DNA of 64,000 nt, from assembly GCA_964016885.1 (NCBI GenBank), contig OZ024747.1:40424001-40488000 (forward strand). The letters run 5' to 3'. The stretch comes from Eledone cirrhosa (lineage: Eukaryota). Position 1 is the stretch's first letter. Each line of letters starts with the position of its first letter. Position numbers and translations under genes: made by a program. Positions 34,401 to 58,400 of this stretch are shown in pieces. Under the pieces are notes generated by a model, which made no database searches, was not told the DNA's origin, and saw only the letters and a program-made list of their open reading frames with translations.

Positions 34401-37400
34401 GCCAGCAATTTATGGGGAGGGGCATGTCAAAATTATCAACCTCAGTATTTGACTGGTACTTTATTTTCTTTATGCTGGAAGGATGAAAAGCAAAGCTGAC
34501 TTCGGTGGGATTTGAATTCAGAATGTAAAGGGCTGTAACTAAATGCTACAAAGCATTTTGTCCACCATTCTGACAATTCTGCCATCTTATATCAAGGTAT
34601 ATATTACATTAATGGCAGGAAAAAATAAAAGTGATTTACCTGAATTGTATGAGAATCACTAGCCTGTCCAAGTATCTCCAGTAAAGCTGGATCAGAAACA
34701 AAAAAGAAACGAGGAAAAATCAATCTCTTCTTCTCAAGATAACCAGTGAGTGACCTTTGACATATTTCCAACTGTTCCAGTAGGTAAGGTAACTGCTGTG
34801 ATAAAATATCATCACCAACACAACAGGCAATGATATTAGGGATCTCATGGGCACGCTGCATGATTCTCACCCAGGATTTGTCAATGTTGCTAAACCGCTT
34901 CGCTTCCTAAAAGCAAGAATGAAATAATTTGAAAAAAAAAAAATTAATTCCTAAATATTTGCACAAAATATGAAGCCCAATATGGCGTCACATTTATCTT
35001 ATATAAGTTTCATATAAAAAATATAAGACAATAAAACTGAACTGCTGTTTGTGACTACTGGCTGTTCCTGTGCTAGAGATGCAAGTTTCTCAATGCATGA
35101 CCTCGTTGATCTCTGATATCAGTGGCACACAGGGTGAAGGGATTCTGTTTGTCTCTGCTTGCACTCTGGCCATCATTTGTGGCACTATGGAAGCAGCAGC
35201 AGCTATGATTTGTCACCTCATATATTTGTTGTTGCTTCTGTTTGCTGGCCTTATATTCTAATTTTTCCTCTTCTAAATAGAAAGGTCCCCAAGTAGCATT
35301 TACTAACATATGTGTAGCAACAGGACTTCCTACTCATCCCATCAGTCTAACTGATCTCCTCTCTACTCCCACATCATCATTATCTTCATTGTCATCATCG
35401 TTTTTACATCAACCTTTCCATGTTAGCATGGGTAGGACAGGACTTTTTGAGGCAACCTTTTACAGTTGGATTCCCTTCCTGAAACTTTTTGTAGCAATTA
35501 CAGATCTGCTTCACTCTTCTCAAATTTAAATAAGTTCCTTGAAAATTTACTTAACATAAAATTCTACCAATTCTTTGATCACTATAAATATATTTCCCTC
35601 TTACACTATGAACTGGTGAATAGACTGCTGTCAATTGTCAAGTGATAAACTTTCCAGTATTTGATAGTAATAATTCATTTTTTATGTATCTTTACAAGAG
35701 TATGGGAGAGAAAAAGAACTTGGACAAAGTTTCAAGGAATTCTGTACTTCTTTCTTCTTTAATACCATAACTCCTAAGGGAGTGGTAGGGGTGTAGTATT
35801 AACATTCAGCATTTCTAGGGTATTTTAAAATCTAGCAGAATCCACTCTGTACAACATTGCTCAAAATGAAATGCTATATTGGTTCCTATTAGTGCACCAC
35901 ACTGAAGAAGAAACAAAGAATTACTCCTGTTGTTTCGATTCATTGATATGTCCCAGACCGATATTTGGTGTTGCTTTCTCAAAGCACCAGTGACATTGAA
36001 AAAACAACACCAAATATCAGCTCGGGACATATCAATGAATCAAACAACAGGAGTAATTTTTATTTCTTCTACATGATTTTCTGTTTTTTATGTTCAATTT
36101 CTAACAGTCTGATGCATAACAGTTATCACTGAAATATATATAACAGTGATTATGAATAAATGAATAAAGTAAATTCTAACCTGTTGGCTTGTACTTCATT
36201 ATTATAATTATACCCACTTGTATACTTCATTGAGTGCTCATTCCTGCATACACTAGTGTCGTTGATTAACTAACTCATACTTTACCAAATCTCTCTCTCT
36301 CTCTCTCTCTCTCTCTCTCTCTCTATATATATATATATATATATATATATATATATATATATAAACATATACATTCATATAAATATATATATATATATAT
36401 ATATATATATATATATATATATATACCCCGTCCCACCACCACCACCCCCACCCCATCCACACCACCCCGTTCTATGTAAAGTTATGTTGGTGCCGCGCCA
36501 TCGAGGCCGAAACAAATGAGATCGTGTAGGTGTCACGACAAAAAAACACACAGTCCACGCTGTAATGTGGCCGTGTAGGCAACACGGTAAAAACCTCCCA
36601 GACCCACACTGTAAATGTGGTTGGTGTTAGGAAGGGCATCCAACTGTAGAAAACCTGCCAGACAGTCCTATGCGAGCAAGACAATCACTCTTGCATCAAG
36701 TGGGACTACCCCCGTCCAAACCCATGCAAGCGTGGAACACGGACGTTAAACGTTGATGATGATGATGATGATGATATATATATATATATATATATAATAT
36801 ATAAGATCAAAAGATGGTTAAATAAGTTCCATGTATTTTATTATGCACATTTCAAAAACAAATATCATCATGCAATAACATTTGTGTTTTCATCAGATAA
36901 AATAGGAGGACATGATATGAAGGTTAAAAGCACTTGTGGATAGTGCAGTTTTAAATCAACATATCATATGTTGATTTAAAACTGCACTATCCACAAGTGC
37001 TTTTAACCTTCATATCATGTCCTCCTATTTTATCTGATGAAAACACAAATGTTATTGCATGATGATATTTGTTTTTGAAATGTGCATAATAAAATACATG
37101 GAACTCATTTAACCATCTTTTGATCTTATATATTATGTATACTCCAATCCTACAAACTGTAGAGTGCTTCTTATCCGATATCTGCATTGCTTTATTGTAC
37201 TACAATAAAACCCACCTCCTACATATATATATATATATATATATATATATATATATATATATATATATATATATATATATATATATATATATATATATAT
37301 ATAAACATATACATTCATATATACATATATGACGCCACAAACTCGTGTTCAAGCATTGCATTCGCCAGATAAAATGCTAAAAAATGTGAGGCATGAATGT

Positions 37401-55400: not shown

Positions 55401-58400
55401 GTGTGTGTATAATTGTATACGTGTGTGTGTGCGTGTTTGTGTATGTATTTGTGTATGTGTAAGTATGTGTTTATGTATTTGTATATGTATATTTATGTGT
55501 GAGAGTGTGTGTATGTATTTACTATTTCGTACGTATGTATACGTGCATTTGTGTGTATTACTTACCACGCGTGTCTGTCCAGTTACCTGCCGTTTGTATC
55601 GCTGTCAAACATTTTTTTTATATATATAAATTTTTTCTTATATTTATTTGCGTGTGTGAATATGTAAAGGAGTGCATTTATGTATGTGTATGTATGTACG
55701 TGTGTATATATATGTATGATTGTGTGTATGTATGTATATGTGTGTATGTATATGTATTTATATTTATGTTTCTATGTGTATGTTTGTGTGTATATATGTG
55801 TGTGTGGTTGTATATATGTATGTGTATGTATGGATGTGTTGATATTTATGTGCGTATGTATATATGTGTATATGTATGTGTTTGTGTGTATTTATATACA
55901 CATATATGTGTGTATATATGTGTGTGTATGTATGAGTGTATGTATATGTATATATATATGTATATATATATATATATATATGTGTGTGTGATTGTATATA
56001 TGCTTTTGTGTGTGAGTGTGCGTGTTTTTGTGTGTGTGTTTGCATGTGTAGTTTTATTTTATTTTTCCTTTCCTTCTTCCTTCTCCAGCCTCACTTTCAT
56101 ATAGATTGCATTTTTGTTTTTAAAATCCAAATTCAATAAACAGACCAGGATTTTTTCATTGTGGGGATTGAAAGCAAAATCTTTTGCTTTTAAGAAACCA
56201 CTGGTAAATGGAATAATTGCCTTATGTTGTTTATTACATAACTATTAAGCTCTGTTACCTACATAGAGCACTCTTTTTTCCTGGACTTTTCCGACGGAAT
56301 TACTTCATTTATATATATATGTGTGTGTGTATACATATATATGTACACACACGCACATAAATGACTGACTGAACACACACATGCTTTTTCTTCAAAACAA
56401 TATATTCTGTTTGTTCCTCTTCTCACTCTCCTCTATCTTTCTATTTCTTCTTTTATTTCACATTCTATCCTCTGATGAAGCACTAGCATGGGAAATGTTA
56501 TGACTCTTTCCTTACTCTATCAAGTGTTAAACTAATATATAACTTCATTGTAATGTATTGCTTGGTGTGCTGTTTTCCATTTACTTTTCACATATATGTG
56601 TGTGTGTGGGTATATATATATATATATATGTCCATTGTCCAGGAATGTCCATTTCTATATGAAATGACTGTGTATATGCTCTACTAATGTATTGAGTACC
56701 TTATTTAACTGTGGTTTCATCATGATCTCCATTGGAAAACCATTCTTATTTATATATATAAATATACATACACACATATATATATATATTTATATATATA
56801 TATATATATATATATATATATATATATATATATATATATATATATATATATATATATATATATATCCAGGAAGCTCCAACCGTTAAGGTTGCATTTTTTC
56901 AGGGTATGTCAATATTTATTTATAAAACTAATCTGTATTATATTTTATCTGATGAAAGCGCACCATAATCTGCGTTGGTGGCTCTTGAAATATGTATAAT
57001 AAAATAGATATGGTTTTATAAATATAGTTTCCATTTGTTAATATATTGTATATATATATATATCAGTTCCCGTCTCACCCTTGCAAGCAGGGAAAAGCAG
57101 ACGTAAAATGATGATGATGATGATGATGATGATGATATATATATATATATATATATATATATATATATATATATATCATCAAGTAGAAGGGATATTTAAT
57201 TTGTTGGAAATCCGACAAATATAAATATAAATGTTTATAACTGATTTAAAGCACTCAACATTTTACTGGAGTAAATATTCAATGATATTAAATAAATGGA
57301 AACTATATTTATAAAACCATATTTATTTTATTATATATATTTCAAGGGTACCAAAACACTTTGGTATGCTTTCTTCAGATAAAATACAAAGTTTGTTTTA
57401 TAAATAGAGACATACCCAGGAAAATCATACCTTATCAGTTAGATATTCTCTGAATAGTCAGTTGGATATTCTCTGTGACTATCCAGAGAATATTCAACTA
57501 ATAAGATATATATATATATATATATATATATATATATATATATATATATATACATGTATTACAGCAATGGAAAGACAAATGAAAACAGTATTTCCTTAAT
57601 CTGATTAGGGGAGTTCCACCCCACTCGTTGTGAGAATCAGGCCTGGGGTCTTGTCGATCAATTCAATCAATGTGTTTGTATATACATATATATATATGTG
57701 TGTGTGTGTGTGTGTGATGCGTAGATTCATATTTAGTTCTACGTCTGTTCTCAAATGGTCAATAAACAAAACCATCTTAATATCTATTTGCTTCACTCAT
57801 GCAATAAGTGTATAAATATAAAGAGCAAAGTAAAGTGGCGATTTTTTTTTTAAATTCAAGCTTGACACATTGAATATATTAAAAAGATCTTTACCTGTTC
57901 TGGAATTCAAGGAGTTCTTCATTAATTTTGTCAATATCAATTTCTGTCCAGGGTATGTCATAATATCCACTGACAGATGCTAACACAGCATTATAAAGCT
58001 GGTAAAGCTTTTGTAAAAGATTAAGTTCTTTTTTTATTCTGGGTAAGTCAGAATATTCAGTCACTGGTAGACCAAAGAGTTCTTCACCTCCAGAATATGT
58101 TAAGTATTTACCCCATAGTTCATCAAACATGCACTGGTATATCTTCATTCTGTCAGATGCTTCCCTTGGTTCAATACCTTCTTCCATTGGGCCTCTAAAA
58201 TTAAACATTGTTACAATTTTAAAATAGTAAAATAATGTAAAACCAGCATAAGAACAACACAAAGTGTTCCGCTTCAAATTAATTTTTTCAATTCTTCTTT
58301 TGACAAAGGAATTTAATTCCGAAATATTAAGAATTAATTAAATACTTCCAAGTTAATAGTCCTATTTTTAACATTTTATGTCAGATTTGGATTGCTTTAG

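Follow-up and report, generated by a model that had tools for sequence, protein, structure and literature searches.

Type I hammerhead sequences of Hydra-clade Penelope-like elements in Eledone cirrhosa and a duplicated hairpin that may mark the two ends of their insertions

The hammerhead ribozymes of metazoan Penelope-like elements (PLEs) have a long helix II and a palindromic helix III, fall into many covarying families per genome, and are reported to depend on dimerization and to be of low activity (PMC4209133). Among PLEs, the Hydra clade is marked by DKT, a CxCx5C linker, and CxxC and CxH around endonuclease E and N (PMC8557442), and an octopus member with a palindromic-stem III hammerhead, Hydra-1_Obim, is given in the supplement of that paper. 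It has also been described that just one of the inverted repeats bears a tail (PMC3846280; PMC8557442), and in vitro the protein of the PLE Poseidon cuts and extends both strands, with starts at two internal sites bracketing the tail (PMC11167929). The origin of the inverted repeats and of the one-sided tail is debated in print, the proposals being self-priming on an antisense template, resolution by endonuclease, and two starts of reverse transcription. We have analysed a 64,000-nt stretch of the Eledone cirrhosa genome (assembly GCA_964016885.1, contig OZ024747.1, positions 40,424,001 to 40,488,000, forward strand; hereafter the window) with five type I hammerhead sequences, which lie in the pseudo-long terminal repeats (pLTRs) of four Hydra-clade PLE families, A to D. 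In the most probable view, the hammerheads of these four families, now found in (TA)n as short, truncated insertions, require dimerization to cleave, and the insertions were made by reverse transcription from two hairpin-marked sites downstream of the uncleaved hammerhead.

All five copies listed in an initial annotation of the window, representing four distinct sequences, are present (Table 1), and their four stem II designs and stem III octamers match its description. The copies at 36834(-) and 37026(+) are identical 71-nt motifs and form the arms of one 353-bp palindrome. The CUGANGA...GAA core ascribed to all five is found in four; at 50219-50285(-) AAA stands for GAA, the catalytic G12 being changed to A, and this hammerhead is predicted to be inactive. 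Each of the five sits in a (TA)n tract between exons of a minus-strand dynein heavy chain gene. A strict scan of the window, in which stem I had to be at least 7 bp, recovered four motifs with an intact core, all with an 8-bp stem I, versus none in each of 20 local shuffles. A relaxed scan returned seven rows (0–1 in 10 shuffles). There are additional hammerhead-like motifs in the window that the first list had missed. No hammerhead family was among the 117 matches of an Rfam scan of the window at E up to 1. We do not count this miss as disqualifying, since the long stem II and the 2-nt loop III would deviate from the Rfam hammerhead models.

Elsewhere in the genome, each of the four variants lies 250–281 nt before the start of an open reading frame (ORF) for reverse transcriptase (RT) and GIY-YIG endonuclease (loci L101 for A, L127 for B, L146/L239 for C, and L187 for D), so that the suspected link of the hammerhead flanks to Penelope ORFs is supported for all four. 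Related ORFs were located by using as the probe the intact natural protein of Hy1, another Hydra-clade family represented in the window. Direct hammerhead-ORF-hammerhead units of 3.3–4.6 kb were found for A (L101), B (L127, L233), C (L239) and a family E (L234, L235, L237), and for D the upstream hammerhead-ORF link alone was seen (L187/L240). The layout of the element is hammerhead, hairpin 1, hairpin 2, ORF, 3′UTR, hammerhead. The proteins contain DKT, YRDD, CxCx5C, CxxC and CxH (B in the ORF of L127, A in pieces from L101/L102, C and D in pieces from L145/L146/L181/L187), and the ORFs are assigned to the Hydra clade because they carry DKT, CxCx5C, CxxC and CxH. The position of RWK reads RWR in A and RWI in B, and RWK in Hy1 and the related families of L213 and L225. 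Hydra-type insertion into (TA)n is seen for these families. The A, B and C proteins are 42–53% identical to one another and 29–39% identical to Hy1, and the 100 nt upstream of the hammerhead are 47–62% identical between families. The A, B and C variants, first described as subfamilies, thus belong to separate PLE families, and at such distances the identical stem I among them represents real conservation. Uninterrupted Hydra ORFs are retained at L127:3071-5464(-) (798 aa) and L079:1057-3186(+) (710 aa). Hy1 has more than 100 close copies in the genome, many of them 94–98% identical, which indicates that these families are young.

A 12-mer consisting of stem I and CUGA has 59,437 matches in the genome, whereas its reversed control has 1,318. 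As an unselected sample we took the places listed first for contig C1, within the first 14 Mb of that one contig, which gave 101 exact matches; the full hammerhead layout was found in 89, of which 67 passed and 22 failed a test for intact core and stems. Extrapolation from these 14 Mb of one contig gives roughly 50,000 complete motifs in the genome. Most copies are truncated and lack an ORF, as only 2 of the 87 classified arms in this sample run on towards one. The GAA core strand is kept in 85/89 copies. In stem II, pair 10.1-11.1 is A-U (56) or G.U (27) in 83/89, pair 10.2-11.2 is A-U in 59 and G-C in 26, and pair 10.3-11.3 is G-C in 48 and A-U in 34. Position 10.4-11.4 is C.C in 63 and C.U in 21, which leaves a single C.Y mismatch after 3 bp of stem II in 84/89, and pairing starts again at 10.5. 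The design first reported, a 3-bp helix, a C-containing internal loop and a longer helix, is therefore sound, except that the loop is normally this single mismatch; the larger loops at 56941 and 57324 are specific to those copies. The G10.1-C11.1 pair with an unpaired base between 9 and 10.1, a mark of PLE minimal hammerheads, is not present (G-C in 0/89). A register with an extra base after A9 was also considered, and is ruled out by covariation at 10.2 and 10.3.

With the 5′ arm of stem I fixed by the search pattern, the 3′ arm is the octamer of the initial annotation in 54/89 copies and a U.G-wobble variant of it in 26/89. Stem I is near-constant within the families around those of the window, but it is not invariant as had been claimed, since three more distant families combine another stem I with the same stem II design. 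The short stem III is palindromic, as in PLE minimal hammerheads, with UG (44), UA (22) or CG (21) at the centre of its octamer, and this centre is self-complementary in 87/89. A poly(A) signal overlaps the cleavage site, and the arm that holds it varies in 35/89 copies. Across 11 family representatives, 92.4% of cells are paired and 11 of 18 pairs are changed on both sides, which none of 500 shuffles reached; slid registers give 30–55% paired versus 92% in the true register. The representatives were hand-picked, the structure was chosen by the analyst, and relatedness inflates covariation, so these figures are not a p-value; with this reserve, the compensatory changes uphold the suggestion of selection on the hammerhead structure. 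C10.4 is invariant in 11/11 representatives, although the neighbouring pairs covary. With three helices, open ends in stem I and support from covariation, the motifs have the properties of type I hammerheads.

Between the hammerhead and the ATG lie two similar motifs, 90–99 nt apart, whose predicted fold has a 4-bp stem, two bulged nucleotides on its 3′ side and an upper stem that varies. Among 44 recurrent variants, for which the three middle pairs were fixed by the search pattern, pair 1 is A-U in 23 and G-C in 16, and pair 5 is C-G in 32 and U-A in 5. The pattern of the second copy has 1,760 matches in the genome versus 5 for its reversed control. Thirty of these matches were fetched; 21 stand directly before the start of a Hydra ORF and nine lie in non-coding repeat families, several of which carry related hammerheads. 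By eye the hairpin can also be recognised in five of six published Hydra consensus sequences, which span four phyla (one each from coral, octopus and copepod and two from sea cucumbers; supplement of PMC8557442). These five end just before or shortly after it, and the sixth is 5′-incomplete. A possible likeness of the downstream motif to the twister ribozyme was considered and dropped; the second loop of twister was not recognised by eye.

The 3′ ends of 154 copies were mapped on natural references linked to ORFs, the copy sets of families C and D having been fetched with queries that favour long tails, and two clusters appeared in every family. By BLAST, 140 of 149 copies (5 self-hits left out) end -12 to +2 nt from the start of a hairpin motif, and exact junctions lie 3–11 nt before the motif in 90/96. 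For family B, contigs of four public runs, one of which (X1) may itself be the source of the assembly, have (TA)n or other loose ends at both points. We refer to the end at hairpin 1 as site 1 and that at hairpin 2 as site 2.

The two ends are combined in a regular manner when insertions are inverted. Fifty-three nearest head-to-head hammerhead pairs were collected and six were excluded as pairs of different families; in 38 of the remaining 47 both ends could be classified, and site 1 was combined with site 2 in 38/38, including 14/14 from the unselected sample and the 36834/37026 pair of the window. Independent choice at the unselected arm frequencies (55 to 30) would give a mixed pair in about 46%. 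Arms that run into the ORF behave alike, the far end being, as predicted, at the other site in 4/4 testable full-length insertions (L233, L234, L235 and L237), and the long arm may end at either site (L233 versus L234, L235 and L237). When partial partners are included, an inverted partner ending at the opposite site was found for 98 of 100 classifiable arms, a figure in which two-hammerhead pairs count twice. The Hy1 insertion of the window conforms to this rule as well. Twenty-seven cases have a site-2 arm that carries the tail but lacks the core, opposite a site-1 arm with the core and no tail; neither arm contains the other, and one was therefore not copied from the other. At the inner junctions, 37 of 64 arms stop 55–79 nt upstream of stem I, at family-specific points, and 20/32 junctions hold extra bases while 6/32 have an overlap of 2–6 nt. 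The insertions thus show the inverted 5′-truncated copy and the tail at one end that are typical of PLEs.

The observed layout and end counts suggest a route of protein binding, priming and cDNA joining, which may be outlined as follows. A protein of the element would bind each hairpin and cut both strands of the (TA)n target. Each side of the cut would then prime one cDNA, one on the AU-rich stretch directly 5′ of hairpin 1 and the other on that before hairpin 2. Both cDNAs would run towards the 5′ end of the RNA and be joined end to end, resulting in a head-to-head repeat with one short and one long tail. Most cDNAs would stop 55–79 nt upstream of stem I, where the transcript probably has its 5′ end; this would explain the tens of thousands of hammerhead copies that lack an ORF. 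The route agrees with the cutting and extension of both strands and the two tail-bracketing starts reported for Poseidon (PMC11167929). Every genomic copy spans the cleavage site, and the copied RNA must therefore have been uncleaved or religated. We also lean, with modest confidence, towards the idea that the duplicated bulged hairpin, whose conservation spans corals, sea cucumbers, copepods and the present genome, is a loading signal for the telomerase-like RT, and that both copies are used at each insertion, one per side of the double-strand cut (two-ended target-primed reverse transcription). If so, a sense template would suffice to explain the one-end tail and the head-to-head arrangement of PLEs, and the hairpin would define a cis signal kept by non-coding hammerhead repeats for mobilisation.

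Several observations weigh against this reading. AT-rich microhomology makes the placement of junctions less sharp. Folded by itself, hairpin 2 has little stability (-3.9 to -6.0 kcal/mol for its short forms), and in some cases the predicted minimum is a fold other than the bulged one. Two of the 100 partners end at the same site and nine further partners end elsewhere, and 106/215 arms, among them the solo copy 56941, have no inverted piece within 700 nt. The active dimer of the family A hammerhead is predicted to lie 8.5 kcal/mol above the dimer minimum. As for the assignment of the elements, RWR (A) and RWI (B) stand where the RWK of the Hydra clade is expected, the clade is given by motifs and by-eye likeness to Hydra-1_Obim and not by a tree, and stem II is without the G10.1-C11.1 that PMC4209133 calls highly conserved.

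Alternatively, the ends of the same elements could be trimmed from a longer cDNA or DNA intermediate by an endonuclease acting at the motif read as DNA, with the inverted arm arising by fold-back self-priming. The tail has indeed been ascribed to endonuclease-mediated resolution (PMC8557442), head-to-head repeats with palindromic junctions have been explained by self-priming (PMC3846280), and some of the present junctions, the six with overlap, are near-perfect palindromes; the hairpin could form in single-stranded DNA as well. Nevertheless, the 27 insertions with complementary arm content leave neither arm as a fold-back copy, and both the extra bases at the inner junctions and the ability of the long arm to end at either site speak against this alternative, as do the internal starts of reverse transcription at tail ends shown in vitro for a PLE (PMC11167929). 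We regard this alternative as unlikely, and reverse transcription from the two hairpin-marked sites as the better account.

For the ribozyme itself, the notion of a dimer-type stem III is supported by the self-complementary centre dinucleotides and by predicted energies. The active monomer fold is predicted at -4.5 to -6.4 kcal/mol with a probability of at most 0.0003, and the active homodimer with an 8-bp intermolecular stem III at -20.6 to -28.2 kcal/mol; for family D the active dimer is the predicted minimum. This modelling makes it likely that cleavage is restricted to dimers. Two hammerheads would pair through the palindromic 8-nt stem III, which would make stem I intermolecular too. With stems I and III intermolecular and stem II intramolecular, slow change in stems I and III and free covariation in stem II would be expected. 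It is also conceivable, though we hold it to be quite improbable, that the hammerheads work as monomers, either through tertiary contacts given by the C.Y mismatch or an extended stem I, or with the help of a protein. The invariance of C10.4 amid covarying pairs does suggest a contact with protein or within the tertiary fold, the flanks of families A, D and E can by eye extend stem I past an internal loop, and the hammerhead of Poseidon was cleaved only in the presence of protein (PMC11167929). However, a monomeric stem III has two stable pairs and folds to 0 kcal/mol alone, and a self-complementary loop III would be needless for a monomer.

That the motifs are a stand-alone hammerhead repeat family independent of any ORF, or a host-coopted ribozyme family particular to cephalopods, is highly improbable and largely refuted: most copies are ORF-less and non-coding tandem units with related hammerheads do occur (L227-L230), yet all four window variants precede PLE ORFs elsewhere, copies decay (the 22 that fail the intact test; the lost G12 of 50219), copy ends obey the two-site rule of the PLEs, and the non-coding units have other stems I and II. 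These tandem units contain a related hammerhead and both hairpins in 1.3 kb (L227, which is C1:130882000-130891999, and L228) or about 1.9–2.4 kb (L229, L230), and their sequences fit retrozyme-like non-autonomous Hydra elements. The window copies, which are solo or inverted fragments of coding families, are not the non-coding tandem units, each with a hammerhead, that characterise non-LTR retrozymes.

Table 1. Insertions, hammerheads and predicted hairpins of Hydra-clade families in the window.
Position	Strand	Feature	Remark
36795..36964	-	pLTR fragment of family B; the short arm in a head-to-head insertion	Ends at site 1 in (TA)n; ends approximate, AT-rich junction
36834..36904	-	Type I hammerhead, family B, intact core	
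36966..37224	+	pLTR fragment of family B; the long arm, tail of 90 nt	Ends at site 2 in (TA)n
37026..37096	+	Type I hammerhead, family B, intact core	
37141..37168	+	Bulged hairpin 1 (predicted), inside tail of family B long arm	
50141..50404	-	Family C pLTR fragment; hairpin 1 lost by internal deletion	Ends at site 2; upstream end approximate
50219..50285	-	Type I hammerhead, family C, G12A, predicted inactive	
52764..52823	-	Hy1-family hammerhead at element 3′ end, UG at cleavage site	Element ends at site 1 near 52740
53213..55143	-	5′-truncated, frameshifted RT and GIY-YIG ORF, Hydra-clade family Hy1	Without the hammerhead of the initial annotation
56142..56310	+	Hy1 arm in inverted orientation, with a degenerate hammerhead (56153-56217) and hairpin 1 (56249-56272)	Ends at site 2; end approximate
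56864..57053	+	Solo pLTR fragment of family A, (TA)n on flanks	Ends at site 1
56941..57006	+	Type I hammerhead, family A, intact core	
57181..57460	-	pLTR fragment of family D, tail present; short inverted duplication 57427-57509 at 5′ side	Ends at site 2
57250..57272	-	Bulged hairpin 1 (predicted), family D tail	
57324..57386	-	Type I hammerhead, family D, intact core	

The PLE ORF within the window, that of Hy1, was rejected as the parent of the five motifs, as Hy1 carries a different hammerhead; neither piece of this ORF gave a match in a Pfam search. The Hy1 insertion is surrounded between 51056 and 56160 by long inverted duplications of microsatellite-rich DNA (51056-51578 with 55679-56160; 52005-52660 with 55159-55821). 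Another repeat forms a perfect head-to-head palindrome at 51619-52009, with a tail of about 60 nt on one arm and none on the other; it contains a minimal hammerhead at 51739-51777(-) and its mirror near 51851-51889. An intact minimal hammerhead of a different family, with a 6-nt palindromic stem III and a 6-bp stem I, is located at 14972-15014(+). Further bulged hairpins at 513-534, 1908-1931, 2038-2064 and 56678-56700 have U-A at pair 5, followed by a short tail and (TA)n, and are the ends of other Hydra-type families. A non-coding unit of about 610 nt at 49450-50136(-) contains hairpin-like motifs and a partial direct repeat, and one of the repeats ends in (TA)n just before the first motif; in sequence the unit is like a non-autonomous PLE. 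The dynein exons extend over 34604-63345(-) and are those of an axonemal dynein heavy chain (Pfam PF25007 and PF08393, matches for two exons). The hammerheads at 36834, 50219 and 57324 are in introns of this gene in the sense direction, where efficient monomeric cleavage would cut the dynein pre-mRNA. Two more stretches, 24030-26020(-) and 45188-47903(-), hold a Gypsy-like RT ORF lying within a LINE fragment as well as several LINE copies in decay, in which domains for RT and endonuclease are present.

What the hammerheads contribute to a known class is a variant of stem II and a very high copy number; the downstream pair of hairpins matters more than they do. With the motif mostly 3–11 nt from both ends, a strict rule of one end of each kind, and intact ORFs of 710–798 aa in the same genome, the insertion model is directly testable in vitro. 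For the closest relatives of telomerase RT the hairpin is moreover a candidate for a compact RNA signal. In the open literature searched, neither the hairpin pair nor the rule of one site per end was found; the main text of PMC8557442 makes no mention of a hairpin, stem-loop or stem loop, and the accessible portion of a 2026 octopus repeat annotation (PMC13282606) makes none of ribozyme, hammerhead or Hydra. The suggestion that the hammerheads are an undescribed cephalopod variant is largely anticipated by earlier work. A long stem II with a palindromic, dimer-type stem III is already in PMC4209133, and the octopus Hydra element is catalogued in PMC8557442; the C.Y mismatch and the particular sequences were not found in the literature covered, outside of which stands the work of Lunse et al. 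on dimeric PLE hammerheads, which could include them. The hammerheads are thus Hydra-clade PLE hammerheads with a C.Y-interrupted stem II, a variant within a known class.

Among described systems, the Hydra clade (PMC8557442) is alike in its C-terminal GIY-YIG ORF with DKT, CxCx5C, CxxC and CxH, the pLTR hammerhead with a palindromic stem III, the (TA)n targets, the inverted 5′ copy and the one-end tail, and compared by eye the Hy1 ORF resembles that of Hydra-1_Obim. The units are longer here, 3.3–4.6 kb versus under 3 kb, as are the tails, 90–99 nt versus 30–40. None of the Hydra hammerheads in File S2 of that paper has the present stem I or a stem II of 3 bp, C.Y and a long helix, and several of them also lack G-C at 10.1-11.1. 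The metazoan PLE minimal hammerheads (PMC4209133) are likewise of type I and dimer type, with a long helix II, a palindromic helix III and many covarying families per genome; they occur mostly as solo copies, with opposite-strand pairs 100–700 bp apart. The present ones differ from them in the 8-bp stem I, the absence of an extra base between 9 and 10.1 and the C.Y mismatch within helix II, and in copy number, about 50,000 versus 2,000–9,000. Animal non-LTR retrozymes (10.64898/2026.07.22.740005; PMC7229834), non-coding tandem units with PLE-derived type I hammerheads, are similar to L227-L230, whereas the five copies of the window derive by truncation from coding families and are not tandem units. 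Poseidon PAc (PMC11167929) shares two internal starts downstream of an uncleaved hammerhead and AT-rich targets. Its accessible description states neither a duplicated hairpin nor a rule of one site per end; its starts are inside the ORF, in an AC-rich stem loop, and no strand difference in start site was seen for it, unlike the one-of-each ends of the families described here.

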